Shown here: positions 2,296 to 64,000 of the stretch, piece after piece
How positions within the stretch are numbered: position 1 is the stretch's first letter
How the letters are laid out: the number at the start of each line of letters is the position of its first letter
Virus genome (UHGV): UHGV-0041314
Source of the DNA: a virus
Reading direction: 5' to 3' (one strand)
Length of the DNA stretch: 64,000 nucleotides
The notes under the pieces: generated by a model
What the model saw: the letters and a program-made list of their open reading frames with translations, nothing else
The model's database searches: none
Told to the model about the DNA's origin: nothing
Program-made: the position numbers and the translations under genes

Positions 2296-2544
2296 ATGTT
2301 TAACAAAAGTAAAGCTGTGAGTCATGTAGCAAAAGTTGACAGCAAGATTGAAGAACTTGAGCGCATTCTTGCAAATGCCAGAGAGTCAATAATTAAAGAG
2401 GTTGAAGCTGTTGAATCTCAAATGCAGCACCTAATGCTTAAACGTCAAGAACTACGTGAGCATCTGGAATATATTGAAACACGAGAGCTAAAGGTTAACA
2501 GATATTTTAAGGAGTCCAAATGTTTAACTCAAGAGAATCAGTAA
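2296..2544 (+). CDS. hypothetical protein (coiled-coil)
   Basis: track ORF 2281..2544 starts at TTG; in-frame ATG at 2296. Confidence 0.4.
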   Translation: MFNKSKAVSHVAKVDSKIEELERILANARESIIKEVEAVESQMQHLMLKRQELREHLEYIETRELKVNRYFKESKCLTQENQ

Positions 2545-3275
2545 AAAACTGGAATCTTCGTTGTGGAAACACGCAAAAGCGACCTTACAGTGATGAGTAT
2601 TGGGAATCTTTGAAATCTCAATCTCTATGTATGCTTGAAGAAGCAAAAGAGCTTGTAAAAGCAATTGAAGAGAAAGACCCCATTGAGACACTGGATGCTC
2701 AGGCAGATTTGCAATATGTTCTTGACGGTTTGATTTATCTGTCACAACATGACCATAATGGTGCTATGGAAGCTGTTTGCCATAATAATGACCTGAAGTA
2801 CACAGACGACTATGAAGACGCTTTAAAGCGTCTTGCAGATATTGAGAAGCGTACTGGTCAAGAGTGTATCATCAGAATGTCAGTAGTTGATGGTAAAGAG
2901 TGGTATGCGATTGTTCGTGCAGCCGATGGGAAGATTATGAAGCAATCAAATCTCCCTAAAGTTCAGCTTGGTGAATACATTGTAGAACTTGAAAGCCAAG
3001 AACTTTTTGTGGTAGTATCTGACACATGCGTTATCTGCAAAGGTATTGTATGTAGCTTAAAGGATTTGGGTGTAGATGGTTTTGTAGAAGTTAATCCAAT
3101 TACCTCTAAAGCAGATAAAGATTTCTGTAAAGAGAATGGACTATGGATTGCAGATATTGTCTACTATGATGGTGAGCAGTTCCATGTAACCTCATACCCG
3201 AAACTGAATTATGATGCTAATAACCTGAAGTGCTGGTTAAAAGGGGTTGGTTATAATGGATTCACAGAACATTAA
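2520..3275 (+). CDS. hypothetical protein; weak resemblance to all-alpha NTP pyrophosphohydrolase (MazG-like)
   Basis: strong RBS AAGGAG upstream of ATG 2520; EEAKELVKAIEEKD...LDAQADLQYVLDGL pattern. Confidence 0.3.
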   Translation: MFNSRESVKNWNLRCGNTQKRPYSDEYWESLKSQSLCMLEEAKELVKAIEEKDPIETLDAQADLQYVLDGLIYLSQHDHNGAMEAVCHNNDLKYTDDYEDALKRLADIEKRTGQECIIRMSVVDGKEWYAIVRAADGKIMKQSNLPKVQLGEYIVELESQELFVVVSDTCVICKGIVCSLKDLGVDGFVEVNPITSKADKDFCKENGLWIADIVYYDGEQFHVTSYPKLNYDANNLKCWLKGVGYNGFTEH

Positions 3276-12389: not shown

Positions 12390-12401
12390 ACAGATACTAT
12401 A

Positions 12402-12426
12402 AGGGAACTGTAAAGGTTCCCTTTTT
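12402..12426 (+). terminator. rho-independent terminator
   Basis: GGGAAC-TGTAAAG-GTTCCC then TTTTT. Confidence 0.6.
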
Positions 12427-12440: not shown

Positions 12441-12956
12441 ATGTATCTGTCAAATCTGAAACGTTCGGCTGCAATGTCAGTGCTAAGACTCAGCTTTGAG
12501 GAACGTCAAGAGTTCATTGACTCCCACCAATACGACCCTTCTAACTCCAATCACATGATTCTCTGGAATCGTGATAGTACTCGTGAAAGAGCACTATTCC
12601 GCTATTACCCACACTACACCATAGACAACCTGTATGAATGTTTTGTTGTGAAGAACACCATTACAGTGCTCAATAAACTTTGTAGATACACAGGTAACCA
12701 GTCCTTCACATTAGGTCACCACAAACCTGTTACAAAAGGTGGCGAACATCACTGCGCAAACTGGTTTATCCAGACTAAACTTGATAACCAGAAGCAAGGC
12801 GATAGTCTTCTAAGTACTCCTAAGATGACCTATGAAGAGCAAGAGAGATATATCAAAAATAATATGCCAGATGTGCTTGACAACAACTATACAGATTTGG
12901 CAATATCTCTCCTGTTGAAGTTCGAGACAGTTTATAGGGCAACTTACAATGGCTAA
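12441..12956 (+). CDS. HNH endonuclease-like protein
   Basis: GHHKPVTKGGEHHCANW...NQKQGD resembles the HNH core (HH-x-P-x4-GG ... N ... N-x-K). Confidence 0.5.
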   Translation: MYLSNLKRSAAMSVLRLSFEERQEFIDSHQYDPSNSNHMILWNRDSTRERALFRYYPHYTIDNLYECFVVKNTITVLNKLCRYTGNQSFTLGHHKPVTKGGEHHCANWFIQTKLDNQKQGDSLLSTPKMTYEEQERYIKNNMPDVLDNNYTDLAISLLLKFETVYRATYNG

Positions 12957-13227
12957 AGAGAAGTGGGAGATTTTACCACTAGTCAGTGAGGGTGGTAATG
13001 GTTGTGAAATGTACATGATACGTGGTCATGTCCCAGAACCAATTGCACTTGAGATGGTGAACAATTTTACAGATGGCTCTTACAAAGACTTAGGAGAACC
13101 AACTGTCAAGCAACAATGGGTTAAACCTGTACCAGACAGCACAGGTAACTGTAGTGTACTTTATCACGTTGTAGACCCTGCAAAATGCAAATCTGCAATG
13201 GCAGTAACAAACGTAACTTTTGATTGA
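12949..13227 (+). CDS. hypothetical protein
   Basis: track ORF. Confidence 0.35.
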   Translation: MAKEKWEILPLVSEGGNGCEMYMIRGHVPEPIALEMVNNFTDGSYKDLGEPTVKQQWVKPVPDSTGNCSVLYHVVDPAKCKSAMAVTNVTFD

Positions 13228-13238
13228 GAGAGAAAATT

Positions 13239-14120
13239 ATGAAAACTATTATTGAAGCCGTTGTCACCGCACAAGAGAAATTCTTCCACACAGAAAAATT
13301 TAATATCATCCAATTTCCATCTGGAGAAATTGGTGGAAACTTCTCTGAAGACTTTGTTAAGTTTACTGAGCGTAATGCTGGTAAGGTTGACAATGTTATA
13401 TTGACTGTGCAGGGATATGATAAAGATACACTGTTTGCATTAGCTTTGGCTAAGGATGCCGTTGACAGTCTTGTTCCATACAAATCAGCGATGAAAACCG
13501 TTGTTTTCGGGTTCTTACCAAATGCTCGATATGACCGACATATGTTCAAAGGTGATTCAGCAGCACTGAAAGCTTTTGCCAACCTCGTTAAGGCAATGGG
13601 CTTTGATGCAGTGTGTGCTCTTGACCCTCACAGTAATGTGGCAGAAAACTTATTCAAGTGCTTTCAGAGCATGAAGCAAAAAGATGTAGCAGCACACTTT
13701 GCAAGTGACCCACGCATTGATTTCTTGGTAGCCCCAGATGCAGGTGCAGCTAAGAAGACTGAAGAGACTGCTAAAGAGGTAGATAAGCCATACATCACAA
13801 TGTCTAAAGTACGTAACCTTAAGACTGGTGAAATTACCGGTATGCGAATCCTTGATGATGTTGATTTGACAGATAAAACCGTCATGATTCTTGATGATAT
13901 TTGCGATGGGGGCCGAACCTTCATAGAAGCAGCTAAACATCTTCGTGAAGCAGGTGCAAAACGTGTGGAACTCTATGTAACTCATGGTATTTTCTCTAAA
14001 GGTGTTGAAAACTTACTTGACAATGGTATTGACCATATCTACACTACAAACACTTTAGGTGAAGCTAAAGACCGTGGCTTAACACATTATGGTCAGGTTA
14101 CTGTAGCAACAATTGATTAA
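13239..14120 (+). CDS. ribose-phosphate pyrophosphokinase (PRPP synthetase)-like; candidate ADPR-pyrophosphate synthetase (Adps-like)
   Basis: track ORF from TTG 13224; ATG 13239; PRPP-binding-type motif VMILDDICDGGRT; immediately upstream of Nampt-like gene. Confidence 0.8.
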   Translation: MKTIIEAVVTAQEKFFHTEKFNIIQFPSGEIGGNFSEDFVKFTERNAGKVDNVILTVQGYDKDTLFALALAKDAVDSLVPYKSAMKTVVFGFLPNARYDRHMFKGDSAALKAFANLVKAMGFDAVCALDPHSNVAENLFKCFQSMKQKDVAAHFASDPRIDFLVAPDAGAAKKTEETAKEVDKPYITMSKVRNLKTGEITGMRILDDVDLTDKTVMILDDICDGGRTFIEAAKHLREAGAKRVELYVTHGIFSKGVENLLDNGIDHIYTTNTLGEAKDRGLTHYGQVTVATID

Positions 14121-14129
14121 AACTTTATA

Positions 14130-14150
14130 GGGGCTTGTAAGCCCCATTTT
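14130..14150 (+). terminator. terminator-like hairpin after PRPP-synthetase-like gene
   Basis: GGGGCT-TGTA-AGCCCC then ATTTT. Confidence 0.4.
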
Positions 14151-14165
14151 GAGAGAGATTAAAAG

Positions 14166-15947
14166 ATGACTAAATCACTTTATGCAGTACCAGCAGGTTT
14201 AAACGCAGATGCTTACAAATCTGGTCACATCTACCAGTATCCTAGCGCAACAGAGTACTTGATGTTCAACCTGACACCACGTAGTGACAAATGGTTTAAC
14301 AGCCCCTTAGCAATTGATGGTGTAGTTGCTTTCGGTATTCAACGTTTTGTTAAAGATTACCTGATAGACCACTGGAACGCCACCTTCTTCGAACGTGACA
14401 AAAAAGAAGCAATTGATGAAATCTTAGAAGTCATGAACGGTGTTCTGGGTAAAGATGCTATTGGTCGAGAACATTGGGAAGCACTCCACGACTTAGGTTA
14501 TCTACCAGTTGAAGTATACGCTGTAGAAGAAGGCACAGTTGTCCCTATGCGTGTACCAATGATTGTCTTCCAGAACACTGTTTCAGGTTTCCATTGGGTA
14601 GCGGGGTATCTGGAAGATGCTTTCTCTGCTGAGATTTGGAAGGCTTGTACCATTGCAACTATTGCATTGCACTACAAACGTATCTGTAAGAAGTGGGCTG
14701 ACCTTACTTGTGACAACGACTTGCATTTACCTTATCAGTGCCATGACTTTGCTATGCGTGGTATGTCTGGCTTTACTGATGACGCATTTAACGCTGTAGG
14801 TCACTTAACCAGCTTTAAAGGAACTGATAGCTTCCCTGCTGTATACACGGCTAAACGCATCTATGGACAGTCCTACCCAATCTCTGATATTGGTAGTTCT
14901 GTACCAGCCACTGAACATTCTGTAATGTGTGCAAACATTGCTTGGGAAGGTGGTAACGAGTTGATTGAAGAAGAAAGACGCTTTAAAGGTGAGTTACAAA
15001 CCTTCCGTCGTTTCTTAACAGAAACTTACCCAACTGGTATTGCAAGTGTTGTTTCAGATACTTATAACTTCTGGAGAACTGTATCAGTCATATTGCCAGA
15101 ACTCCGTAAAGAGATTATGGAACGTGATGGCAAACTGGTAATTCGTCCTGATTCTGGAGACCCTGTACATATTGTCACAGGATACAAAGCAATCCATTTA
15201 GAGTGTGCTAAAAAGGCTTATTACGAACACCTAAGTAAGCTGGAAGCCAGCGACACAATGCTGAATGCTGTTCTGAACATGAAGCTTGAAAACATCAATT
15301 ATGGTATTGCTGGATGGCTACTGTCAGAAGGTTACGAAATGGTTGTTGACAGAGAAGACTTTGAAGTTGCTGATACAGTGCTGTTGAAAAATGCTTATAT
15401 GGTTGGTTCTGCAAACGTTGTAACACGTCCTGTAGCGGAGATTGATGGAGCTATCAAGACACTGTATAACATCTTTGGAGGAACTATCAACTCTAAAGGT
15501 TTTAAGGTACTGGATGAGCACATTGGCCTTATCTATGGTGACTCTATCACGTTGGAACGTGCAAACGAAATCCTGAAGCGTTTGTATGAAATGGGTTTTG
15601 CAAGTTCTAACGTAGTGTTTGGTGTAGGTTCTTACACTTACCAGTACATGACTCGTGACACCTTTGCATTTGCTGTCAAAGCAACTCTTGCAAGCATTGG
15701 TGGTAAAGAGATTATGCTTGCAAAAGACCCTAAAACAGACAGTGGTATTAAGAAGTCTGCTTTTGGTGGTGTAGCCCCTATGTGGGATGGTGAGAATCTG
15801 AAAGCTGTAGATGGCTATGGATTCCAGAGTTTTGCAGATGCACTTGAGCATCCAGCTTGTGCTTTACGTCTAGTCTTTAGCGACTCTGAGCAGTTCGGTT
15901 ACACAACTCTTGGTGATATTCGAAATAATATTGACAAGCAGCTTTAA
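14166..15947 (+). CDS. nicotinamide phosphoribosyltransferase (Nampt/NadV)-like; candidate Namat
   Basis: 593 aa; N-terminal DAYKSGHIYQYP resembles the Nampt N-terminal motif; operon partner of PRPP-synthetase-like gene. Confidence 0.8.
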   Translation: MTKSLYAVPAGLNADAYKSGHIYQYPSATEYLMFNLTPRSDKWFNSPLAIDGVVAFGIQRFVKDYLIDHWNATFFERDKKEAIDEILEVMNGVLGKDAIGREHWEALHDLGYLPVEVYAVEEGTVVPMRVPMIVFQNTVSGFHWVAGYLEDAFSAEIWKACTIATIALHYKRICKKWADLTCDNDLHLPYQCHDFAMRGMSGFTDDAFNAVGHLTSFKGTDSFPAVYTAKRIYGQSYPISDIGSSVPATEHSVMCANIAWEGGNELIEEERRFKGELQTFRRFLTETYPTGIASVVSDTYNFWRTVSVILPELRKEIMERDGKLVIRPDSGDPVHIVTGYKAIHLECAKKAYYEHLSKLEASDTMLNAVLNMKLENINYGIAGWLLSEGYEMVVDREDFEVADTVLLKNAYMVGSANVVTRPVAEIDGAIKTLYNIFGGTINSKGFKVLDEHIGLIYGDSITLERANEILKRLYEMGFASSNVVFGVGSYTYQYMTRDTFAFAVKATLASIGGKEIMLAKDPKTDSGIKKSAFGGVAPMWDGENLKAVDGYGFQSFADALEHPACALRLVFSDSEQFGYTTLGDIRNNIDKQL

Positions 15948-15961
15948 AAGTATATGATAAG

Positions 15962-15984
15962 AGGCTCCTACGGGAGCCTTTTTA
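15962..15984 (+). terminator. rho-independent terminator after Nampt-like gene
   Basis: GGCTCC-TACG-GGAGCC then TTTTT. Confidence 0.6.
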
Positions 15985-23727: not shown

Positions 23728-24513
23728 ATGGGTATTGTAAAAATCATCAATGGCGATATCTTTGCAGCATTTGATAAAGGTAAGTTTGACGTCATCGGTC
23801 ACGGTTGCAACTGTATGAACTTAATGGGTGCAGGTATCGCTGACAAGATTTCTAAACTTTACCCAAAAGCATATGAGACTGATACAGAAGTTTATCTGTA
23901 TGCAGGTGGAATAGGCCACAAGCCCTGTGAGAATTTACTAGGCAATTTCTCTGTAGCACGTTTAAAACAAGGCCGTATAGCTAACCTTTACACTCAGCTT
24001 AAGACTGGTAAAGATGCCCGATACAGTGCTTTAGAGTCATCTTTGAAACAGCTTAACAGATACTGTGAAGTCAATCAGTTGAAGAAAGTCGGGTTACCTA
24101 TGATTGGTGCAGGTATCGGTGGGCTAGACCCTCAAGCCGTCACAGTTATCATTAATCAGGTGATGAAGAGTGTAGATGTTTATCTGTATGTCTACGAAGG
24201 AGAGATGTACCACAAGTTACGCTCAGGTTGGAAGAACTACTGTGAGCCAGAATACTTTGCAGGTGTAGTAACGTTCACAGATGATGCAGTTACCCTCTTC
24301 AGACGAAGAAAAGGTAAGATACATCAAAGTAACCCTCCGGTTGAGAAGATGTCTCTAAGTAACGCTCTAGTTACCCACCTGTCGAAGGGCAATCACAGGA
24401 TAGCCGTAACATTTGGCAGTGATGCAGATACATATATCTATGCAAGAACTGATGAGGATATCGAGACGGTCTTCTCTTCATCGGAAGTTACCTTCTTAGA
24501 CGCAAAGAACTAA
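23728..24513 (+). CDS. macro-domain (ADP-ribose binding/processing) protein
   Basis: GDIF...DVIGHGCNCMNLMGAGIADKI and LPMIGAGIGGL resemble the macro-domain Gly-rich motifs. Confidence 0.5.
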   Translation: MGIVKIINGDIFAAFDKGKFDVIGHGCNCMNLMGAGIADKISKLYPKAYETDTEVYLYAGGIGHKPCENLLGNFSVARLKQGRIANLYTQLKTGKDARYSALESSLKQLNRYCEVNQLKKVGLPMIGAGIGGLDPQAVTVIINQVMKSVDVYLYVYEGEMYHKLRSGWKNYCEPEYFAGVVTFTDDAVTLFRRRKGKIHQSNPPVEKMSLSNALVTHLSKGNHRIAVTFGSDADTYIYARTDEDIETVFSSSEVTFLDAKN

Positions 24514-41743: not shown

Positions 41744-43159
41744 ATGAGCGAATTATTTAAACATGCGCACCTTCATGCAGGTCGAACTGAAAATGGTGCT
41801 GTAAACCATACTTCATCAATGTCTGCTCTTGTGGACTTTTACAAAGCTGCTGGTTCCAGCCGTAGCAATGTAGAAATCTTACCAGACTTGTTCTACAAAG
41901 CTTTGCGTGAGGATGTTGATGTTGCAGTTCGTATTTTGCTTCACATGCGAGATGTACGAGAAGGTATGGGCGAGCGTAAAGCCTTCAGAACTGTTTTACT
42001 TCAAGCAATCGAAGATAAAGTTTTAGAGCCTACGCAGGTTCTTCGTATTATGGATAAGATTGCAGAACTTGGTCGTTTTGATGACTTCAAAATCTTCGTA
42101 GGTACTCGTTTTGAGACAGATGCCTTCAAACATTTAGAAGCAGCATTACTAGACCCTGCAACAGCAGGTTTAGCAGCCAAGTGGTTACCACGAGTAAAAC
42201 CACGACACAAACAGTTTGTAAAACGTTTCTGCAAGTTTGCTAACTTAAGTGAGAAAGAGTACCGCACACTGTTGTCTGCACTGTCTGATACGGTTGAGCA
42301 AAAAATCTCTGCTAATGAGTTTGGTAAGATTGACTACAGCAAGATTCCTTCACTCGCTGCTGCACGTTACCAAAAACTCTTTAACCGTAAAGATGGGGAA
42401 CGTTACAAAGCTTACATTGAGTCACTCTCAAAGGGTGAGGCTAAGATTAACGCTGGTGCTGTTTACCCATATGATGTGATTAAATCTATTAAGTATGGTA
42501 ATGCAGATGTTGCGAATGAGCAGTGGAAAGCACTGCCAAACTGGATGGCAGAGGGTGAAAACATCTTGTGTATGACTGATGTTTCATGTTCAATGTCTTG
42601 GGTGAATCTTGGCTCAATCACTGCCCTTGATATTGGTGTATCCCTTGCCTTGTATGTAGCAGAACGCAATACGGGTTGCTTTAAGAATGAGTTAATGGTT
42701 TATTCAACAAACCCTCATTTTATCGAACTGAGTGGTGATTTACGAAACCGTCATCGTCAGGTAATGCGTCATGTTGAATATGGCTCAACTAACTTACAAG
42801 CAGCTTTTGACCGCATTCTTGAGGTAGGTAAGCGAAACAACTTGACTCAGAAAGATATGCCAAGTAAGCTTATTATCTTCTCTGATATGGAGTTCAATCA
42901 GGTTGATGGAGCTAACGGTCGTACAAACTTTGAAGCAATTCAGAGTAAGTACAAAAAAGCTGGATACGAAATGCCACAACTAGTATTCTGGTACTTAGCA
43001 AACCGTAATGGTACTTGCGAAGTATCTGTTAAGGATAATGGTGTAGCAATGGTATCAGGGTTCTCTCCAGCCACTTTAAAAGCTCTGCTTGGTGGTGAGA
43101 AGTTTGACCCAATCAGCGTAATGCTCAAAGCAGTAATGATTGACCGTTACATCTGGTAA
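41744..43159 (+). CDS. vWA-domain protein with MIDAS motif; possible Ro60/Rsr (TROVE+vWA)-like RNA-binding protein
   Basis: 471 aa; MIDAS-like TDVSCSMS near residue 280 after ~270-aa N-terminal region; immediately upstream of the tRNA/structured-RNA cluster. Confidence 0.3.
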   Translation: MSELFKHAHLHAGRTENGAVNHTSSMSALVDFYKAAGSSRSNVEILPDLFYKALREDVDVAVRILLHMRDVREGMGERKAFRTVLLQAIEDKVLEPTQVLRIMDKIAELGRFDDFKIFVGTRFETDAFKHLEAALLDPATAGLAAKWLPRVKPRHKQFVKRFCKFANLSEKEYRTLLSALSDTVEQKISANEFGKIDYSKIPSLAAARYQKLFNRKDGERYKAYIESLSKGEAKINAGAVYPYDVIKSIKYGNADVANEQWKALPNWMAEGENILCMTDVSCSMSWVNLGSITALDIGVSLALYVAERNTGCFKNELMVYSTNPHFIELSGDLRNRHRQVMRHVEYGSTNLQAAFDRILEVGKRNNLTQKDMPSKLIIFSDMEFNQVDGANGRTNFEAIQSKYKKAGYEMPQLVFWYLANRNGTCEVSVKDNGVAMVSGFSPATLKALLGGEKFDPISVMLKAVMIDRYIW

Positions 43160-43429: not shown

Positions 43430-43506
43430 CTCTGTTTAGCTCAGCTTGGTAGAGCGTTCCGTTTGGGGCGGTAAGGCCGGAGGTTCAAGTCCTCCAACAG
43501 AGACCA
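43430..43506 (+). tRNA. tRNA-Pro (anticodon UGG)
   Basis: cloverleaf by eye: acceptor CTCTGTT/AACAGAG, anticodon loop TTTGGGG, T-arm GGAGG-TTCAAGT-CCTCC, CCA encoded. Confidence 0.65.
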
Positions 43507-43513
43507 AATTAAT

Positions 43514-43591
43514 GTTCCAGTAGACAAAATGGTAAAGTCACCACTCTTTCAAAGTGGATATTTGAGGGTTCAAATCCCTTCTGGAACGCCA
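43514..43591 (+). tRNA. tRNA-Glu (anticodon UUC)
   Basis: acceptor GTTCCAG/CTGGAAC, anticodon arm CCACT-CTTTCAA-AGTGG, CCA encoded. Confidence 0.7.
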
Positions 43592-43596
43592 GTTTT

Positions 43597-43672
43597 GACA
43601 GAAGACCAATTGCAGCAAACTTAATCTTATTCATCTGAAGGTAAATCGGACAAAGAAGAGATTTGGTCTGGT
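43597..43672 (+). ncRNA. structured RNA element, bulged-helix family member 1
   Basis: CAGAAGACCAA...TTGGTCTGG long-range pairing with 2-nt bulge enclosing ~55 nt A/U-rich sequence containing CAGCAA. Confidence 0.3.
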
Positions 43673-43682
43673 CATTAAGAAT

Positions 43683-43759
43683 TGCGGGTATAGAGAAAGG
43701 GCGTCTCACATGTCTCATTAGCATGGTATCGGCAGGTTCGACTCCTGCACCCGCCTCCA
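43683..43759 (+). tRNA. tRNA with CAU anticodon (Met or Ile2), irregular 5' half
   Basis: T-arm GCAGG-TTCGACT-CCTGC and CCA clear; anticodon arm CATGT-CTCATTA-GCATG; 1-72 mismatch; extra nt before D-stem. Confidence 0.45.
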
Positions 43760-43763
43760 AATT

Positions 43764-43832
43764 TACAGAAGACCGTTTACAGCAATATTTATTAAATTTT
43801 TAGCGGAAAAATTGAAAGATACGGTCTGGTAA
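43764..43832 (+). ncRNA. structured RNA element, bulged-helix family member 2
   Basis: CAGAAGACCGT...ACGGTCTGG pairing; conserved TTTACAGCAA after 5' strand. Confidence 0.3.
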
Positions 43833-43842
43833 TACTAAACAT

Positions 43843-43919
43843 GGTTAGGAAGCACATAAGGTATGTGCGGTCGCCTGTTAAGCGAATGGCACAGGGTTCG
43901 AATCCCTGACTAACCGCCA
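43843..43919 (+). tRNA. tRNA-Asn (anticodon GUU)
   Basis: acceptor GGTTAGG/ACTAACC, anticodon loop CTGTTAA, T-arm CAGGG-TTCGAAT-CCCTG, CCA. Confidence 0.7.
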
Positions 43920-43988
43920 AATTTAGGAGAGAAGCGATTGCTCACCGATTTGTAAGGTGCAAGTCCTTAGCCTGAATAGAAATTAAAT

Positions 43989-44076
43989 GTGTCGTTATCC
44001 CGTAGATGGTAGCGGTGGGGACTGTAAATCCCTTGTCATTGAGACTCGGTAGGTTCGACTCCTACACGGCACACCA
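43989..44076 (+). tRNA. tRNA-Tyr (anticodon GUA), long variable arm
   Basis: 88 nt; anticodon arm GGGGA-CTGTAAA-TCCCT; variable arm GTC/GAC; T-arm GTAGG-TTCGACT-CCTAC; CCA. Confidence 0.65.
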
Positions 44077-44082
44077 AATAAA

Positions 44083-44160
44083 GGTTATGTAGTTTAATCT
44101 GGTTAAAATACTCCCCTGTCACGGGAGATGATGAGGGTTCGAATCCCTTCGTAACCGCCA
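44083..44160 (+). tRNA. tRNA-Asp (anticodon GUC)
   Basis: acceptor GGTTATG/CGTAACC, anticodon arm CTCCC-CTGTCAC-GGGAG, CCA. Confidence 0.75.
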
Positions 44161-44245
44161 AATTATAATAAGTATTTCAAAATGATGTTTTGAGAGGGCT
44201 ATTTAGCCCCTCCCTTAAAGAGTTCTTACGAGTATTCTTTAAAGG

Positions 44246-44322
44246 AGCAGAAGACCAAATTCAGCAAGTTACTTAAAATTTCAAGCCAATTTAATTTTGA
44301 AAAATTTAAAACTTGGTCTGGC
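44246..44322 (+). ncRNA. structured RNA element, bulged-helix family member 3
   Basis: CAGAAGACCAA...TTGGTCTGG pairing; AATTCAGCAA after 5' strand. Confidence 0.3.
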
Positions 44323-44332
44323 TCAACAAATT

Positions 44333-44468
44333 TACAGAAGACCGTTTACAGCAAACTTTAAACAATCTATTTCTCCGGTAAAGAAAAGGCGAAGGTTCGA
44401 TTCCTTCACTCGGCAGATGTCGAGTTGGTGTAATGGTAGCACTTAAGATGATAAACAACGGTCTGGTA
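44333..44468 (+). ncRNA. structured RNA with circularly permuted tRNA-like module inside a long bulged helix (Y-RNA/YrlA-like candidate)
   Basis: outer helix CAGAAGACCG (44335-44344) / CGGTCTGG (44459-44466); inside, T-arm GAAGG-TTCGATT-CCTTC then acceptor 3' strand ACTCGGC, 4-nt turn, acceptor 5' strand GTCGAGT and D-arm-like TGGTGTAATGGTAGCAC. Confidence 0.4.
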
Positions 44469-44475
44469 ATTATCT

Positions 44476-44604
44476 TTGTAGATAAGTTATTAAGCTTACC
44501 TGTGAGTATGCGACCACAAAGGGTGAAAGGGTAAATTCTAGATTTAAACCCAACAAGGCACATCGCTACAGACCTTAAGCAAGTCTGGGTAGCTTATCTA
44601 CAAA
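44476..44604 (+). ncRNA. structured RNA candidate enclosed by a 10-bp long-range helix
   Basis: TGTAGATAAG (44477-44486) pairs with CTTATCTACA (44595-44604); internal CAGACC...GTCTGG hairpin. Confidence 0.25.
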
Positions 44605-44615
44605 GATGATTTAAT

Positions 44616-44691
44616 GGAAGTGTAGCAGAATGGTGATGCGGCAGACTTTTAATCTGACAGGCGATGGGTTCGAATCCCTCCACTTCTACCA
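44616..44691 (+). tRNA. tRNA-Lys (anticodon UUU)
   Basis: acceptor GGAAGTG/CACTTCT, anticodon loop CTTTTAA; weak T-stem; CCA. Confidence 0.55.
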
Positions 44692-44695
44692 ATAT

Positions 44696-44772
44696 GGTTC
44701 AGTCGCAGATAAGGTAATGCAGGGGTTTCATAAGCCCTATGAATGTGGGTTCGATTCCCATCTGAACCTCCA
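44696..44772 (+). tRNA. tRNA with CAU anticodon (Met/fMet/Ile2)
   Basis: acceptor GGTTCAG/CTGAACC perfect; anticodon arm GGGGT-TTCATAA-GCCCT (G-C rich); T-arm GTGGG-TTCGATT-CCCAT; CCA. Confidence 0.65.
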
Positions 44773-44773
44773 A

Positions 44774-44849
44774 GCTGGTATAGTTAAGAAGGTTATAACA
44801 CTCCCCTGATAAGGGAACATCGGTGGTTCGATTCCACCTACCAGTACCA
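44774..44849 (+). tRNA. tRNA-Ile (anticodon GAU)
   Basis: anticodon loop CTGATAA; T-arm GGTGG-TTCGATT-CCACC; CCA. Confidence 0.7.
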
Positions 44850-44864
44850 ATTTCAATAAAGTTG

Positions 44865-44893
44865 TTGACATTGAGATGTGACGACTTTATAGT
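44865..44893 (+). promoter_or_regulatory. sigma70-like promoter inside the tRNA cluster
   Basis: TTGACA - 17 bp - TATAGT. Confidence 0.55.
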
Positions 44894-45187
44894 AACTGAA
44901 AATGATTCAGTATATGTATAATTCAAACACCAATACATGAGCGTTAGACGTAACACAATGTGGGGAAATTTGTTGTACATATTCTGAATAGTTTTCGTTG
45001 CGTAGCGTCTATTTTGCAAATTTAAAATAAATGCAAACGACAATGTTTTTCTGGCAGTAGCTTGATAGGCTAAACACCAGTGAGGTCTTCCAATCCCTCA
45101 TCAAAGAATTTGGCGTACTAGCCCACGGTATGATTAATAAGGTGGGCATCTTTAAGGGCTTTCTAAGAGAGTCTTTAAAGATAATTA

Positions 45188-45269
45188 CGGGGCGTATCTC
45201 AGCGGTCTTCTAAACCGCCGTTAACCGAGTAAGTGGAGTATGCGGGTTCGAGTCCTGCCGCCTCGACCA
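45188..45269 (+). tRNA. tRNA-like gene with irregular 5' half; anticodon undetermined (possibly UCU)
   Basis: canonical T-arm GCGGG-TTCGAGT-CCTGC, acceptor 3' strand and CCA; D/anticodon region does not fold as a standard cloverleaf by eye. Confidence 0.35.
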
Positions 45270-45412
45270 ATTTAGTTAGCAGATTGCTTAGACGACCTTA
45301 TCGGGTCTCCGTGTAAGGAGGTGGTCTGTATCTCATGTTTTCCAGAACATGTAAATAATCTGAGAAGGGGCTTTACAGTGTTGCGAAAATACGGTAAGCT
45401 TCGAATTACAGT

Positions 45413-45495
45413 ATGGGACGATGTTAAGACTCTAAGGCATGAGCAACGGCCTCCAAAACCGTTTCAAAGGGGTTCAACTCCTCCGTCCCATGCCA
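45413..45495 (+). tRNA. tRNA-Trp-like (anticodon CCA) with ~7 extra nt between acceptor and D-arm
   Basis: 3' two-thirds canonical (ACGGC-CTCCAAA-ACCGT, T-arm, GTCCCAT, CCA); 5' acceptor strand ATGGGAC displaced upstream. Confidence 0.4.
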
Positions 45496-45508
45496 AAGTC
45501 TTATTAGG

Positions 45509-45596
45509 GGTAGGTAGCGGCTAATGGTAGCCAAACTGTCTTGAAAACAGTTGCCACTGTAGAGATACGGTGAGGGTTCGACTCCTTTACTTACCG
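45509..45596 (+). tRNA. tRNA-Ser (anticodon UGA), long variable arm
   Basis: anticodon arm ACTGT-CTTGAAA-ACAGT; T-arm GAGGG-TTCGACT-CCTTT; 3' end encodes CC only. Confidence 0.6.
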
Positions 45597-45754
45597 CCTA
45601 ATAAGATTTACACCGTCCATGCTTGCTCGCATTTTCGGTTTATCCCTCGTGTATTGGTTGTACACACTGATAAAGCACCTAGTAGGTGTCACGGAGAAGA
45701 GATAATATCAAGCTCTCCAAAGGTTCTAGTCACCGGATTAAACAAGACTATGCA

Positions 45755-45776
45755 AAGACCTAAATAGGTCTTTTTA
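45755..45776 (+). terminator. rho-independent terminator inside tRNA cluster
   Basis: AAGACC-TAAATA-GGTCTT then TTTT. Confidence 0.5.
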
Positions 45777-45854
45777 GAGGGCTTCTAAGGTTATTACAGC
45801 TTGTTGTGGAACCTTGTTGCTTAGGTTCTTAGAAGTTCTCTAAAAAGATTTAAT

Positions 45855-45932
45855 GGGAGATTGACGGTAATTGGTAAACCTACCATCCTTAGAAGTTGGT
45901 GTTTGAGGGTTCGAATCCCTTGTCTCCTACCA
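45855..45932 (+). tRNA. tRNA-Leu-like (anticodon UAG), short variable loop
   Basis: acceptor GGGAGAT/GTCTCCT, anticodon loop CTTAGAA, T-arm GAGGG-TTCGAAT-CCCTT, CCA; D region irregular. Confidence 0.45.
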
Positions 45933-45939
45933 AATTAAT

Positions 45940-46015
45940 GCAGGTGTAGCAAAATGGTTATGCGGCTGACTCTTAATCAGTAAGACGATGGGTTCAATTC
46001 CCTCCACCTGTACCA
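45940..46015 (+). tRNA. tRNA-Lys (anticodon CUU)
   Basis: acceptor GCAGGTG/CACCTGT, anticodon arm GCTGA-CTCTTAA-TCAGT, CCA. Confidence 0.55.
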
Positions 46016-46021
46016 AACATT

Positions 46022-46097
46022 GGGGTCATAGTTTATATGGTTAAAATTCGAGTTTTGCAAACTTGGGAACTGAGTTCAACTCTCAGTGACTCCACCA
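46022..46097 (+). tRNA. tRNA-Ala (anticodon UGC)
   Basis: acceptor GGGGTCA/TGACTCC, anticodon loop TTTGCAA, T-arm CTGAG-TTCAACT-CTCAG, CCA. Confidence 0.7.
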
Positions 46098-46103
46098 ATT
46101 AGT

Positions 46104-46178
46104 GCATCCATAGTTTAAACGGGAAAATTACAGTCTTCCAAACTGAGGTTGAGGGTTCGATTCCCTCTGGATGCTCCA
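46104..46178 (+). tRNA. tRNA-Gly (anticodon UCC)
   Basis: acceptor GCATCCA/TGGATGC perfect, anticodon loop CTTCCAA, T-arm GAGGG-TTCGATT-CCCTC, CCA. Confidence 0.75.
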
Positions 46179-46185
46179 AATTAAT

Positions 46186-46262
46186 GCTGCTTTCGTATAA
46201 TTGGCTATTACACATCCCTTGTAAGGATGGAAATGCAGGTTCGAGTCCTGTGAGCAGCACCA
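46186..46262 (+). tRNA. tRNA-Thr (anticodon UGU)
   Basis: anticodon arm CATCC-CTTGTAA-GGATG, T-arm GCAGG-TTCGAGT-CCTGT, CCA. Confidence 0.75.
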
Positions 46263-46263
46263 A

Positions 46264-46356
46264 TTCAGAGGTCAAGTGAAAGACCGCTTTGAGTCAACTG
46301 AAGACCGTAACAAATCCCACGGAGTTGAGTTAGCGGCACAACTTCAGACCTCTTTC
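46264..46356 (+). ncRNA. structured non-tRNA RNA between tRNA-Thr and tRNA-Val
   Basis: nested helices AGAGGTC/GACCTCT, CTGAAG/CTTCAG, TCAACT/AGTTGA; contains CTGAAGACCGTAACAA resembling the CAGAAGACC motif. Confidence 0.3.
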
Positions 46357-46358
46357 AT

Positions 46359-46433
46359 GCTCGCTTAGTTTATATGGTAAAACATCACCCTTACAAGATG
46401 AAGAAAAAGGTTCAAGTCCTTTAGTGAGTACCA
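46359..46433 (+). tRNA. tRNA-Val (anticodon UAC)
   Basis: acceptor GCTCGCT/AGTGAGT, anticodon loop CTTACAA, T-arm AAAGG-TTCAAGT-CCTTT, CCA. Confidence 0.65.
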
Positions 46434-46434
46434 T

Positions 46435-46512
46435 GTTCCAGTATCCCAATTGGCAGAGGATGCAAGCTCAAACCTTGTATTAGTGACGGTTCGAATCCGT
46501 CTTGGAACACCA
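46435..46512 (+). tRNA. tRNA-Leu-like (anticodon CAA), short variable loop
   Basis: anticodon arm GCAAG-CTCAAAC-CTTGT, T-arm GACGG-TTCGAAT-CCGTC, CCA; weak D-stem. Confidence 0.5.
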
Positions 46513-46626
46513 ATTTTAGGAGAACACTATGAGTAATAAATCAATTGCAAAAAAGTTTATAGCGTCATTCAAAAACAGGCGTAAAAACAACTCTTGTGAA
46601 AAACTGTATGGTGTTCTTGTAGGTAA

Positions 46627-46702
46627 GCAGGATTAGTTCAAATGGATAGAGCAACAGTCTACGAAGCTGTTAATAGGGGTTCGAATCCCTTATCCTGCAC
46701 CA
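46627..46702 (+). tRNA. tRNA-Arg (anticodon ACG)
   Basis: acceptor GCAGGAT/ATCCTGC perfect, D-arm GTTC/GAGC, anticodon arm ACAGT-CTACGAA-GCTGT, CCA. Confidence 0.75.
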
Positions 46703-46721
46703 ATTTAAAGAGGCTATTTAG

Positions 46722-47279
46722 ATGAGATATTTGAAGTATGCTTCATGGATTGTCTTAGCTTTGTTAGAGCCATTTGCAGCAATCTTAGCAGTTATCTTAG
46801 CACCTTTCGTAGTCCCATTCTACAGTGAGAAGAAAGGACACTTACCTTTCGGCTTCAGATGGATGGAGACATATGACAACCCAATTGATGGTGATAAAGG
46901 GCATGTCGAACGATGGGCTAAGATTAGAAAGATTGGCAAGCTTGGTGTCTATATGCAGAGAGTCGGTTGGCTCTGGAGAAACAAAGCTTATAACTTCTCT
47001 TACCATGTATTAGGAAGAGATGTAAAAGATGTTACTAAGTGGAAAGGTAATATCAACGTAAGTTCTAACCCTGAAGATAATCAGACAGGTTATCTCCTAA
47101 TGTGGAACAGTAATGCTTGGGGATTATTCGCTTTTATCCCATCAATTAAAGTCTTTGGTAAACAATTCTACTGGAGAATTTATGTTGGATGGAAGCTAAA
47201 AAGTGTTGTCCCAGAAGAAAGAGCATTCTCAAGGGAAAGAGTTATGTTGGCATTCTTTATTCATCCACTAAGAAAGTAA
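46722..47279 (+). CDS. hypothetical membrane protein embedded in tRNA cluster
   Basis: AAAGAGG RBS; N-terminal hydrophobic segment; between tRNA-Arg and tRNA-Gln. Confidence 0.45.
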   Translation: MRYLKYASWIVLALLEPFAAILAVILAPFVVPFYSEKKGHLPFGFRWMETYDNPIDGDKGHVERWAKIRKIGKLGVYMQRVGWLWRNKAYNFSYHVLGRDVKDVTKWKGNINVSSNPEDNQTGYLLMWNSNAWGLFAFIPSIKVFGKQFYWRIYVGWKLKSVVPEERAFSRERVMLAFFIHPLRK

Positions 47280-47287
47280 AGATTTAA

Positions 47288-47363
47288 AGGGGATTAGTTT
47301 ACAAGGTTAAAACCTCGGTCTTTGAAATCGAAGAAGTTGGTTCAATTCCAACATCCCCCGCCA
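47288..47363 (+). tRNA. tRNA-Gln (anticodon UUG)
   Basis: anticodon arm TCGGT-CTTTGAA-ATCGA, T-arm GTTGG-TTCAATT-CCAAC, CCA; A1-C72 mismatch. Confidence 0.65.
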
Positions 47364-47365
47364 AT

Positions 47366-47444
47366 GCTCCATTACTCCAATTGGTAGAGAGGCCAGACTT
47401 AAAATCTGTGTTATGTATCGGTTCGAATCCGATATGGAGTACCA
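47366..47444 (+). tRNA. tRNA-Leu-like (anticodon UAA), short variable loop
   Basis: anticodon loop CTTAAAA, T-arm ATCGG-TTCGAAT-CCGAT, CCA. Confidence 0.5.
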
Positions 47445-47449
47445 AATTT

Positions 47450-47525
47450 AGCGGTATAGCATAACTGGCAATGCAGCAGTCTCTGAAGCTGTCTTATTAA
47501 GGTTCAAATCCTTATGCCGCTGCCA
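47450..47525 (+). tRNA. tRNA-Gln (anticodon CUG)
   Basis: standard numbering fits: D-arm GCAT/ATGC, anticodon arm GCAGT-CTCTGAA-GCTGT, T-arm TAAGG-TTCAAAT-CCTTA, CCA. Confidence 0.7.
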
Positions 47526-47556
47526 CTTCTAAGGGTTCTTACGAGAGTCCTTAAAT

Positions 47557-47632
47557 GTGGCCTTATCATAAATGGTAATGACCCATGCTGTGAACATGGT
47601 CTATACGGGTTCAAATCCCGTAGGTCACCCCA
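47557..47632 (+). tRNA. tRNA-His (anticodon GUG)
   Basis: D-arm TCAT/ATGA, anticodon arm CCATG-CTGTGAA-CATGG, T-arm ACGGG-TTCAAAT-CCCGT, CCA. Confidence 0.75.
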
Positions 47633-47638
47633 ATTTAT

Positions 47639-47714
47639 AGTCCAAGTAGCTTATATGGTTAAAGCGCGTGTCTGAAAAACATGAGAAGAGGGTTCAAATC
47701 CCACTGGACTACCA
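47639..47714 (+). tRNA. tRNA-Phe (anticodon GAA)
   Basis: anticodon arm CGTGT-CTGAAAA-ACATG, D-arm GCTT/AAGC, CCA; acceptor/T-stem register ambiguous by 1 nt. Confidence 0.6.
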
Positions 47715-47730
47715 ATTCCAAAGGTGCTTA

Positions 47731-48465
47731 ATGAAAGAGATGACAGAACAAGGTAAGGAGATTTTTAATCTCTTAAAAACCGGTAGAGGGTTTTCTAATC
47801 CCCTTATTACTGGTGCAGCAGTTCTCGGTGGAACCGTAGCTGCCTCTACATCACTTGTAAGCTCTATTAGCTCTGTAACAGACCCTACAATAAAAGATAA
47901 ACTTGTTGCTGCTGGACTTACAACAGTTCTGCTTAACAGCTTTACAACGAGCCTGACAAGCACTACATCAACTACTAAGACACTGACAGATTACGGTCAA
48001 AAGTCCATTGATGAGTTTTCCTCACGTATGCAGGTAGCAAAAGGCTATTCTAATGTTATGGGTGCAGCAGGTGAACAAGTTGGCTGTACACCATTTAGTG
48101 GTATTATGGGTGTTGCTACAGAGTATGGTCAAAAAGCTATGGATACGATTAACAGTGCACTAGACGGTGTTAATGATGTATTAAGTGACTTACAGGATGC
48201 TATTGATAAAGGTCTTGATACTATTTCTGATTTAGCTAACCAAGCTGTTAGTAAGATTAATGAAGGTATCTCGAAGATTACAGCTTATGCAGATGAAGTT
48301 GTGCAGATGATTGAAGAAGAAGCTGCCCTTATTGCAGAGTACCTTAAAACGAATATCAATGGGTTCTTAGCAGGTATCTTACCAGACTGGTTCGACGATG
48401 CTTGTAAAACTGGTGTAATTGACACTATTGCAACACCAGAAATGAAGAACGCATTACAGAAATAA
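47731..48465 (+). CDS. hypothetical Ser/Thr-rich protein embedded in tRNA cluster
   Basis: track ORF 47668 starts at GTG inside tRNA-Phe; ATG 47731 with AAGGTG RBS lies after the tRNA. Confidence 0.4.
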   Translation: MKEMTEQGKEIFNLLKTGRGFSNPLITGAAVLGGTVAASTSLVSSISSVTDPTIKDKLVAAGLTTVLLNSFTTSLTSTTSTTKTLTDYGQKSIDEFSSRMQVAKGYSNVMGAAGEQVGCTPFSGIMGVATEYGQKAMDTINSALDGVNDVLSDLQDAIDKGLDTISDLANQAVSKINEGISKITAYADEVVQMIEEEAALIAEYLKTNINGFLAGILPDWFDDACKTGVIDTIATPEMKNALQK

Positions 48466-48467
48466 AT

Positions 48468-48560
48468 GGAAGATTAACCCTAAAAGGTAAGGGAGCAGTT
48501 TGCTAAACTGCCAGTAGCTGAGAAATCGGTGTACCAGTTCAAGTCTGGTATCTTCCTCCA
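48468..48560 (+). tRNA. tRNA-Ser (anticodon GCU), long variable arm
   Basis: 93 nt; acceptor GGAAGAT/ATCTTCC perfect, anticodon arm GCAGT-TTGCTAA-ACTGC, T-arm ACCAG-TTCAAGT-CTGGT, CCA. Confidence 0.7.
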
Positions 48561-48564
48561 ATTT

Positions 48565-48640
48565 GAATCCGTGACAGAAATGGCTATGTGCCTGTCTGCA
48601 AAACAGGTTTATAAGGGTTCGAGTCCCTTCGGATTCTCCA
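48565..48640 (+). tRNA. tRNA-Cys (anticodon GCA)
   Basis: standard numbering fits: acceptor GAATCCG/CGGATTC, anticodon arm CCTGT-CTGCAAA-ACAGG, T-arm AAGGG-TTCGAGT-CCCTT, CCA. Confidence 0.8.
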
Positions 48641-49063: not shown

Positions 49064-49084
49064 TTCTATTTGCGGAGGTGCTTA

Positions 49085-50686
49085 ATGGACTTAAATGCTG
49101 TTAAGCAGAAGCGAGTGGAAGATGTTAGGAAAGTCCTAGCTGGAGAGTTGGGGCTTTCTGATGAAGTAAAAGAAATTATCAAATCATTCGGTAAAGACCC
49201 CTCTAAATTCCTTCCAACTCAAATTCTGACTTTATTAAGATACACCCCAGACCAAGTTAGACTTATCTTCAAATTAATGACTGATAAGAACTATGTAGCC
49301 CCTCAGCCGGGTTCTCAAGAGGTCTTTTTAAATACTAATGCTGACTTGGTTCTCTATGGTGGTGCTGCTGGTGCTGGTAAGACTGCTGCATTATTAATGG
49401 ACTCTTTAAGGTTTATTGATGACCCTAATTATAATGCTGTATATTTCCGTCGAAACACAACACAGTTACAAGGTGGTTTGTGGCCTGCTGCAAAGAAACT
49501 ATTTGGTAAGTTTGGTGGGGTTCCTCACGAGCAGAAGATGACTATCACATTCCCTTCTGGGGCAACTATCAAGTTTACCTACCTAGAACTTGAAAAGCAC
49601 GCTGAAGGTCATCAGGGTATTGAGTATTCAGCTATTTACTTTGACGAAGGTACTCACTTCTCTGCTTCACAGATTTCATACCTACAGACTCGTCTACGTT
49701 CTGGGGCTGAAGGTGATTCATACATGAAGATTTCTATGAACCCAGACAGAGACCACTTTATTTACGATTGGGTAGAACCATTCTTAGATGAAGAAGGTTA
49801 CCCAGACCCTGAAAAGTGTGGTCGTATTCGTTGGTATGTAATGAATGATGGTGTTATGGTTTCTGATTGGGAGAGAGACAAGATTCTTGAAATGTTTCCT
49901 CTTGAGATTCCTCAAACATATACATTCATCTCTGGTACGATTGATGATAACCCAATTCTTGACTTCCTAGAACCTAAATATCGTGGTAAGTTGGAAAACA
50001 ACACCCCTGTAAACGTTGCAAGACTTCGTTTCGGTAACTGGAAGGCTCGTGCAGAAGGTTCAAACTATTGGCAAAGACAATGGTGTGAAATTGTTGATTC
50101 ACTCCCAGAAGATGTATTCGATGTCAGAGCATGGGACTTAGCAGCAACTTTACCATCTGAGATTAACCCTAATCCAGACTGGACAGCAGGTGTTAAGATG
50201 GGTAAATCTAAAAAAGACGGTTGCTATTATATCATTGATGTAGTAAGATTTAGAGATAGACCCTCTGGAGTCGAAACACAAATTAATTTGACTGCTGAAA
50301 GTGACGGTAAGCGAACTGGTATTTTTATCCCTCAAGACCCAGGCGCTGCTGGTAAATCCTACGCAACATCCCTCATCAGGAAACTTGCCGAGAAAGGTTA
50401 TCGAGCAAGGGCTAAACCAACAAATAAAGATAAAGTTACCCGATTTGCGGGGTTTTCTGCTGCTTCTGAAGCTGGACTTGTAAAAGTCTTGAGAGGTAGT
50501 TGGAACGAAGCTTACTTCCAAGAACTTGAAGGTTTTTGTGGTGATGGTAAAACTAAAGATGACCAAGTGGATGCTACCAGTGATGCTTTCAACAGTCTTA
50601 ATGAAGTTAAATTATTCAAGCCACCATCAATGGGTGCTCACACAGACTTAGTGAGAGGAAACCCATATGAGGGGCTTAGACGTTGA
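49085..50686 (+). CDS. terminase large subunit
   Basis: track ORF from TTG 49070; ATG 49085 with GGAGG RBS; Walker A LYGGAAGAGKTAALL. Confidence 0.8.
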   Translation: MDLNAVKQKRVEDVRKVLAGELGLSDEVKEIIKSFGKDPSKFLPTQILTLLRYTPDQVRLIFKLMTDKNYVAPQPGSQEVFLNTNADLVLYGGAAGAGKTAALLMDSLRFIDDPNYNAVYFRRNTTQLQGGLWPAAKKLFGKFGGVPHEQKMTITFPSGATIKFTYLELEKHAEGHQGIEYSAIYFDEGTHFSASQISYLQTRLRSGAEGDSYMKISMNPDRDHFIYDWVEPFLDEEGYPDPEKCGRIRWYVMNDGVMVSDWERDKILEMFPLEIPQTYTFISGTIDDNPILDFLEPKYRGKLENNTPVNVARLRFGNWKARAEGSNYWQRQWCEIVDSLPEDVFDVRAWDLAATLPSEINPNPDWTAGVKMGKSKKDGCYYIIDVVRFRDRPSGVETQINLTAESDGKRTGIFIPQDPGAAGKSYATSLIRKLAEKGYRARAKPTNKDKVTRFAGFSAASEAGLVKVLRGSWNEAYFQELEGFCGDGKTKDDQVDATSDAFNSLNEVKLFKPPSMGAHTDLVRGNPYEGLRR

Positions 50687-50702
50687 TAGCTAGGTGAGAA
50701 GA

Positions 50703-52169: not shown

Positions 52170-52669
52170 TGGCTGAAGTTATCTCTATTTCAAATGCTAC
52201 ACGAGTGCATTCGTATAGGGGTGTCCTTATCATTACTGATAAGCTATCTGTAGAGGCTGGCTCAAGGGTCAGCCTTTCAGGTTATGTTAGTGATGGTGGA
52301 GTCTCTGACGTTTTCACTATTTGCAGGTTACTTGATGCACCAATGAGTGGTAAACCGTTTATTTCAGGAAATTGTAGTGAAATTGTTAAAATTCCATTTG
52401 ACAGTTCATGCCTTTTGGGTGTAAAGTTATATAACTGCGAGAATAAACGTATCAATGTTAATAGCATTGAAGCCGCTTTCATTACCCTCGATACTGCATT
52501 TCAATCCCCAATGACAGTTAACAAAGAAACAAACAGACTTGAATACATTTTTTCACAAAATGATTACAAAGTACTTGTCAAAGGTAAAGTATATGATATG
52601 ATTGTAAATGTGGTAGATGAATCTGGTAACCATTCAACAGTCCTTAAACAAAAAGTAAGGTTTAATTAA
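52169..52669 (+). CDS. hypothetical structural-module protein
   Basis: track ORF. Confidence 0.4.
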   Translation: MAEVISISNATRVHSYRGVLIITDKLSVEAGSRVSLSGYVSDGGVSDVFTICRLLDAPMSGKPFISGNCSEIVKIPFDSSCLLGVKLYNCENKRINVNSIEAAFITLDTAFQSPMTVNKETNRLEYIFSQNDYKVLVKGKVYDMIVNVVDESGNHSTVLKQKVRFN

Positions 52670-53001: not shown

Positions 53002-53012
53002 GGTGAGTAAAA

Positions 53013-54359: not shown

Positions 54360-54370
54360 GGAACACAATA

Positions 54371-54748: not shown

Positions 54749-54781
54749 TAACAATAATAAGACATTCTGGAGAATTTTACA

Positions 54782-55888: not shown

Positions 55889-55909
55889 TATTCTTAAGGA
55901 GGGTTATGA

Positions 55910-59166: not shown

Positions 59167-59181
59167 TAGAGGTAAATTGGA

Positions 59182-59628: not shown

Positions 59629-59701
59629 TAAATCCTATAAGGGGGAGACTTTAAAAGGTCTTCCCCTTTTTTGTTTCTTTTAAAAGTATTAAGGAATCAC
59701 A

Positions 59702-60100: not shown

Positions 60101-60102
60101 AC

Positions 60103-60342: not shown

Positions 60343-64000
<3,658 letters not shown>

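Follow-up and report, generated by a model that had tools for sequence, protein, structure and literature searches.

The 64,000-nucleotide stretch of the virus genome UHGV-0041314 analysed here (the window) carries, on its + strand, two adjacent genes, adps (13239-14120) and namat (14166-15947), named for ADP-ribose pyrophosphate synthetase, a homologue of phosphoribosyl pyrophosphate (PRPP) synthetase, and for nicotinamide ADP-ribose transferase, a homologue of the nicotinamide-using enzyme Nampt. An initial annotation made from the sequence had placed these co-directional genes at the same positions and proposed them as a candidate pathway for rebuilding nicotinamide adenine dinucleotide (NAD+) during infection. 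The window belongs to a Felixounavirus genome: a megablast search with 13224-15947 gives 255 phage records, nearly all from Felixounavirus-type phages (of Escherichia, Salmonella, Shigella and Citrobacter), with Escherichia phage vB_EcoM_E9 at the top (98.8% identity, 100% query coverage). Throughout, we use as a reference Escherichia phage JohannRWettstein, or Bas63, a Felixounavirus of the BASEL set with a genome of 87,100 bp (MZ501086). The genome studied here is about 87 kb long as a whole, and roughly 23 kb of it falls beyond the 64-kb window and is not directly inspectable.

The first gene, adps, encodes 293 aa from an ATG at 13239 to a stop codon at 14118-14120. An alternative in-frame TTG at 13224 would add five residues; the annotations of Bas63 and AYO145A both use the ATG at 13239, and a Shine-Dalgarno-like GAGAG lies upstream. 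The product matches the Pfam families Pribosyltran (E 2.5e-12) and Pribosyl_synth (E 4e-10) and is assigned to phrog_619. The PRPP-synthetase-type motif reported by the initial annotation is indeed present: it is VMILDDICDGGRT, at aa 215-227 (13881-13919, + strand), and it includes the ribose-binding Asp pair D219 and D220 and the PP-loop region C222-T227, elements whose role in Adps has been described (PMC13586617). In our alignment of the window protein with ICP1 Adps, FADO Adps and E. coli Prs, this region lines up with D212-S220 of ICP1 Adps.

The second gene, namat, starts 45 nt past adps on the same strand and encodes the 593-aa Nampt-like protein that had been noted before, with a Pfam match to NAPRTase (E 2.2e-34) and a match to NAMPT_N that, at 24.8 bits, stays just below the 25-bit cutoff. 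Such an immediate co-directional Namat neighbour is found in 97% of the Adps clade. Each gene is followed by a hairpin, as the initial annotation had it, and the two hairpins differ in strength. Between the genes, at 14130-14145 (+ strand), a 6-bp GC stem (GGGGCT-TGTA-AGCCCC; -11.5 kcal/mol, z -2.3) is followed by AUUUUG; a simple terminator scan makes no call here because the U-tract is short. The hairpin is kept in Bas63 with its stem intact and a single loop base changed, and the AYO145A annotation lists it as a rho-independent terminator. We consider it probably a weak terminator, an attenuator or an RNA-stability element between adps and namat, and one may speculate that a leaky hairpin at this position sets the ratio of Adps to Namat. 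After namat, at 15959-15982 (+ strand), the same scan does call a rho-independent terminator, with a 10-bp stem and a U-tract (-16.6 kcal/mol, z -3.3).

What identifies the pair is its relation to Bas63. The window Adps is identical to Bas63 gp79 at 282 of 293 positions (96%) and the window Namat to gp80 at 579 of 593 (98%), both without gaps, and it was in Bas63 genes 79-80 that NARP1, the combination of Adps and Namat, was discovered by Osterman et al. (bioRxiv 10.1101/2024.02.11.579819). Both loci come from the same genus, order their genes alike and encode proteins of 293 and 593 aa; the intergenic hairpin, the clamp motifs and the insertions in Namat recur as well, and in both the pair is flanked by NrdG upstream and rIIA downstream. 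They differ in that a 345-nt ORF (open reading frame), bas63_0081, follows namat in Bas63 and is lacking in the window, where the next gene past namat is an orthologue of bas63_0082 (94% identical). The system is thus one that has already been described, and the window holds a near-identical orthologue of its type example; the word candidate in the initial annotation understates its standing, and the pair is not new. With 96-98% identity to the type proteins, the placement of both window proteins is trivial.

The work on Bas63 and its relatives supplies the function. Deleting genes 79-80 from Bas63 lowers plaque numbers about 20-fold on cells carrying SIR2-HerA and deepens the loss of NAD+; rescue by the wild-type phage is retained in a host deleted for both pncC and nadR; and ADP-ribose pyrophosphate (ADPR-PP, m/z 720.010) is seen only when wild-type Bas63 meets the defence system (bioRxiv 10.1101/2024.02.11.579819). 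The homologues from SpβL1 make ADPR-PP from ADP-ribose (ADPR) and ATP, and NAD+ from ADPR-PP and nicotinamide (bioRxiv 10.1101/2024.02.11.579819), and the in vitro reactions have been demonstrated for the SpβL1, ICP1 and Paenibacillus enzymes. The NADases reportedly countered by NARP1 comprise SIR2-HerA/Nezha, DSR1/2, type I Thoeris, SEFIR, Kongming and SPARSA.

From orthology at 96-98% identity, we infer the same enzymology and counter-defence role for the proteins of the present phage. In an infected cell, a defence NADase of the host would cleave NAD+ to ADP-ribose and nicotinamide. Adps would then pyrophosphorylate ADPR on its distal ribose, at the 1'' hydroxyl, with the beta-gamma group of ATP, so that ADPR-PP and AMP are formed. 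Namat, holding its substrate through an adenine-binding clamp, would make NAD+ from ADPR-PP and nicotinamide and release pyrophosphate. With NAD+ rebuilt by two enzymes, the phage could therefore go on replicating, and no NMN (nicotinamide mononucleotide) adenylyltransferase (NMNAT) would be required.

Residue-level comparison agrees with this scheme for both proteins. In Adps, the catalytic beta-hairpin Lys is kept (K190 in the window, K185 in ICP1 Adps), and so is the acceptor-binding set, where R97, H131, D167, D219, D220 and D223 correspond to R87, H121, D161, D212, D213 and D216 of ICP1. In Namat, the core residues F195, R198, D221, H251, R327 and D329 are invariant in an alignment of 50 sequences and correspond to F189, R192, D215, the catalytic His, R306 and D308 of the SpβL1 enzyme; the segments HDFAMRG, GTDSFP, ATEHSVM, IRPDSGDP and IYGDSIT hold the equivalents of the SpβL1 catalytic and pocket residues, G360-D361 included. 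The structures point the same way. The top sequence matches of Namat in the PDB are 9w5w and 9w5x (E 6e-128), which the fold search identifies as SpβL1 Namat; the AlphaFold2 (AF2) model of the window protein (pLDDT 93.8) has these two entries as its best fold matches, with a TM score of 0.95 on the target and 38% identity, and the NadV of H. ducreyi (9ke8) and mammalian NAMPT rank below them.

The window Namat also has the selectivity clamp, an adenine-binding arrangement of a helix motif and a loop that separates Namat from Nampt (PMC12774641). The helix motif defined in that work reads GSYTYQYMTRD in the window protein, at aa 488-498 (15627-15659, + strand, located by alignment), with Met at position Φ3 as against the common Asn or Val. 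At the same site, true Nampts have GGALLQKVDRD (Xcc) or GAQTYQRNTRD (H. ducreyi NadV). The selectivity-clamp loop (SCL) is PRSDKW, at 14277-14294 (+ strand), and alignment to 9w5x puts K42 at the position of SpβL1 R40. The published rule for this loop asks for Arg at position 3, or for Lys or Tyr there and then a stacking residue at position 4, and gives Bas63 as an example of the latter (PMC12774641). The S-D-K42-W43 of the window is identical to that of Bas63, and W43 is predicted to be the adenine-stacking residue.

For Adps, the distinction from housekeeping enzymes comes from scores. Compared with a characterised Adps on one side and a housekeeping Prs on the other, the protein falls on the Adps side, scoring 115 bits with ICP1 Adps (35% identity) and 65 bits with E. 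coli Prs (27%). It lies under all of the NCBIfam Prs equivalog cutoffs (296-536 bits; its best score, with NF002095, is 113.8 against 296), and this can show only that Adps is no Prs equivalog, NCBIfam being without a model specific to Adps or Namat. A PDB sequence search with Adps gives canonical PRPP synthetases only, and the ICP1 Adps structures, which date from September 2026, are not among the matches.

Taking these lines together, we conclude, with a probability of roughly 0.93, that this Felixounavirus pair is a NARP1 operon with an anti-defence function. Several observations weigh against this conclusion. Relative to Bas63 there are 11 substitutions in Adps and 14 in Namat, although none falls inside the mapped motifs. 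Some contacts of ICP1 Adps are altered here (F92 to M102, A218/A219 to G225/R226 and F223 to E230), and several ATP-lid residues are also unlike those of ICP1. The in vitro enzymology comes from proteins with no more than 28-48% identity to these (those of SpβL1, ICP1 and Paenibacillus), so that for this particular phage the assignment is one by orthologues. Finally, Namat enzymes keep a PRPP-dependent NMN synthesis in vitro (PMC12774641).

Of the alternatives, the one that survives best leaves the NARP1 core in place and enlarges it. A macro-domain protein of 261 aa is encoded at 23728-24513 (+ strand; Pfam Macro E 1e-7), which belongs to phrog_335, named 'phosphatase', and corresponds to bas63_0095, a 'putative phosphatase'. 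Its macro domain spans aa 3-154 and is followed by a C-terminal region of about 100 aa without a Pfam match. If this protein converted the ADPR-1''-phosphate made by aRES-type RES NADases to ADPR, the range of defences countered would be broadened, much as in NARP1-AP, the Adps-Adpp-Namat arrangement of Vibrio phage Gary (bioRxiv 10.64898/2026.01.28.702374), which shares with the window the Adps and Namat core and a macro homologue in the genome. The macro domain aligns over its full length with gp178 of Vibrio phage Bennett (29% identity, E 3e-15), which is embedded in a NARP1 operon and is 94% identical to Adpp of phage Gary, a validated ADPR-1''-phosphatase, and also with a 'phosphatase' of Pseudomonas phage SW_PA2862_7_24 encoded two genes after Namat (30% identity, E 5e-22). 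The published survey would miss the gene at 23728-24513 because it was limited to two genes on each side of NARP1.

Other observations weigh against this reading. Neither the window operon nor the two genes on each side of it include a macro gene: the candidate lies further downstream, 7.8 kb and 13 predicted ORFs from namat, is only about 29% identical to the operon-embedded proteins of the NARP1-AP type, and is extended by its additional C-terminal region. Members of the macro family appear in 2,851 phage records, T4-like phages included, and the other weak matches of the protein are to the ADP-ribosyl glycohydrolases TARG1/OARD1 and DarG. Judged on these similarities, the macro protein might serve NARP1 as an unlinked ADPR-1''-phosphatase, or it might instead be a DarG/TARG1-like de-ADP-ribosylase. 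We regard a contribution of this protein to an extended pathway as doubtful, and an extended Felixounavirus form of NARP1 in the broader sense, with either the macro protein as a distal Adpp or the inserted part of Namat at aa 341-427 (described below) adding some property that the characterised Namats lack, such as docking of Adps or regulation, as similarly unlikely.

Considerably less probable is that the genes form a classical salvage pair, in which a true PRPP synthetase and a true Nampt or NadV make NMN, a host NMNAT finishes NAD+ by the NadR or PncC route, and the purpose would be a larger NAD+ supply for phage metabolism at large. The names in databases and the Pfam and NCBIfam family matches fit this description: Adps passes the subfamily model TIGR01251 (138.7 vs a cutoff of 113), the only such model it does pass, and Namat passes NF006629 (468 vs 405). 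The housekeeping enzymes (E. coli Prs; H. ducreyi NadV, 9ke8; Xanthomonas and human NAMPT) also share folds, phosphoribosyl-transfer chemistry and family hidden Markov models with the window proteins, and, in vitro, Namat enzymes can turn PRPP into NMN about half as fast as human Nampt does (PMC12774641). However, rescue by Bas63 needs neither host pncC nor nadR and is accompanied by accumulation of ADPR-PP, and when both donors are present SpβL1 Namat favours ADPR-PP (bioRxiv 10.1101/2024.02.11.579819; PMC12774641). The clamp motif found in the window Namat is absent from true Nampts, which are without the aromatic residues of the clamp helix, and Adps, 27% identical to E. coli Prs, scores below every Prs equivalog cutoff. 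By orthology with Bas63 and SpβL1, the window pair would thus use ADPR and ADPR-PP where the housekeeping pair uses ribose-5-phosphate and PRPP. The preference of the initial annotation for NARP1 over a Prs and NadV pair is accordingly supported, by the identity to Bas63 gp79 and gp80, the clamp signature, the failed Prs cutoffs, the higher score with ICP1 Adps and the lack of an NMNAT among the scanned ORFs and in the Bas63 annotation. Since SpβL1 Namat forms NMN in vitro, the window protein may retain a residual Nampt-like side activity of this kind, or a secondary salvage role.

The remaining two pathways call for genes that were looked for in the window and in Bas63. Among the ORFs scanned with Pfam, which are most of those in the window outside the head/tail module, no domain of the NMNAT/CTP_transf_like, NadR, PnuC or NUDIX type was found; the earlier remark that the window shows no NMNAT holds for these ORFs and is extended to the rest by synteny with Bas63, whose full annotation (87,100 bp) lists no NMNAT, NadR, PnuC or Nudix gene. 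NARP2, a Nampt acting with a phage NMNAT/Nudix enzyme encoded elsewhere in the genome, could in principle draw on the 23 kb of the genome outside the window, but its Nampts are unpaired with Prs or Adps and form a separate clade, while here Adps is present, and together with the lack of CTP_transf_like and NUDIX domains in the scanned ORFs and in the Bas63 annotation this leaves it scarcely credible. NARP3, which consists of a PnuC-like transporter and a NadR-like enzyme (PMC13464706), is excluded because neither PnuC nor NadR is matched in the scanned ORFs or annotated in Bas63.

Set beside the NARP1 enzymes characterised by biochemistry and structure, those of SpβL1, FADO and ICP1 (PDB 9w5w/9w5x; PMC12774641, PMC13586617), the window pair agrees in its two-gene layout, in its catalytic and clamp residues and in fold (TM 0.95 to 9w5x), at identities to FADO and ICP1 of only 28-31% for Adps and 46-48% for Namat. 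In the clamp loop, the window has K-W where these proteins have a stacking Arg. The larger difference lies in the length of Namat: relative to SpβL1, FADO and ICP1, the Felixounavirus protein has two added segments, one of about 14 aa (aa 258-271) and one of about 77-85 aa (aa 341-427; 15186-15446, + strand). The large segment is modelled confidently by AF2 as a small alpha/beta subdomain, and no recognisable fold relative was found for its roughly 85 aa. It is specific to Ounavirinae, being seen only in 254 Ounavirinae-type phage records at identities down to 43-52%, and metagenomic relatives have long Namat forms as well, with insertions of varying length. The Namat structure paper does not discuss the large insertion (PMC12774641). 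An origin as an intein or homing element can be rejected: the segment is too small, is in frame, folds within the protein and is conserved at the protein level down to 43% identity.

Variation among Felixounavirus-type phages adds a further observation on both genes. Their Adps alleles fall into two classes, 95-99% and 77-81% identical to that of the window. Phage vB_EcoM_DE17 joins a divergent Adps (77.8%) to a Namat insertion segment that is 100% identical, and this suggests recombination inside the operon among these phages.

The nearest cellular relatives of the pair are chromosomal Adps/Namat-like pairs in Klebsiella, Cronobacter, Kosakonia and related genera, with 47% identity for both proteins and with the Namat helix motif. 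In Klebsiella michiganensis (DAHJTQ010000013.1, 4127-6491), the Prs-like and Nampt-like genes are likewise adjacent, and the clamp helix motif reads GSFTYQYNTRD. In contrast to the phage pair, this one sits in a core-genome context, divergent from a gene for a regulator with NUDIX and WHD_NrtR domains, and its Namat is of the short form, 496 aa without insertions; the cluster of homologues to which this Namat belongs has 1,229 member sequences. NrtR regulators respond to ADP-ribose. Because the pair adjoins an NrtR-like gene, its gene content would fit a housekeeping NARP1-like operon that recycles ADPR, and the Enterobacteriaceae pair may be such an operon under ADP-ribose control. Housekeeping ADPR recycling is only briefly raised in the paper that discovered NARP1 (bioRxiv 10.1101/2024.02.11.579819).

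The identification matters chiefly for annotation. More than 250 Felixounavirus-type records call the two products ribose-phosphate pyrophosphokinase and nicotinamide (or nicotinate) phosphoribosyltransferase, or hypothetical, and our literature search found no paper linking Felixounavirus with NARP1. Read correctly, the genes are an anti-defence module for growth on hosts with NAD+-depleting immunity, in a group of phages that is common in therapy and biocontrol. The pair itself adds nothing biologically new to Osterman et al. (2024) or to the structural papers of 2026. Groups working on NARP1 have cheap leads here, namely the orphan subdomain of Namat, the macro protein that resembles Adpp but is unlinked to the operon, and the homologous pairs on chromosomes beside the NrtR-like gene.

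The operon probably extends further upstream than the two genes. Between a terminator at 12401-12423 and adps lie two small ORFs on the + strand, at 12441-12956 and 12949-13227, and the transcription unit of adps and namat probably starts after this terminator and takes in both of them. The first encodes 171 aa, belongs to phrog_3500 and weakly matches an HNH-like domain; the second encodes 92 aa (phrog_4726).

The rest of the window has the genes typical of the genus: NrdA/B, NrdD/G, rIIA/B, polynucleotide kinase, endolysin, a cluster of 25 tRNAs, terminase, portal and capsid. The ORFs for NrdA, NrdD and rIIA, the head/tail module (49070-63848) and a few short ORFs were assigned only by synteny to the Bas63 annotation. 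In the early region, also on the + strand, are a SegE-like GIY-YIG homing endonuclease (1777-2274; E 9e-26) and a protein with a MazG/PRA-PH-like pyrophosphohydrolase domain (2520-3275; E 2e-5). Several ORFs of at least 50 aa in the mechanical ORF list, at 43509-46275, overlap tRNA genes on either strand and are probably not genes. Directly upstream of the tRNA cluster, which occupies 43430-48640, a protein of 471 aa with the domains DUF2828 and DUF7788 is encoded at 41744-43159 (+ strand).

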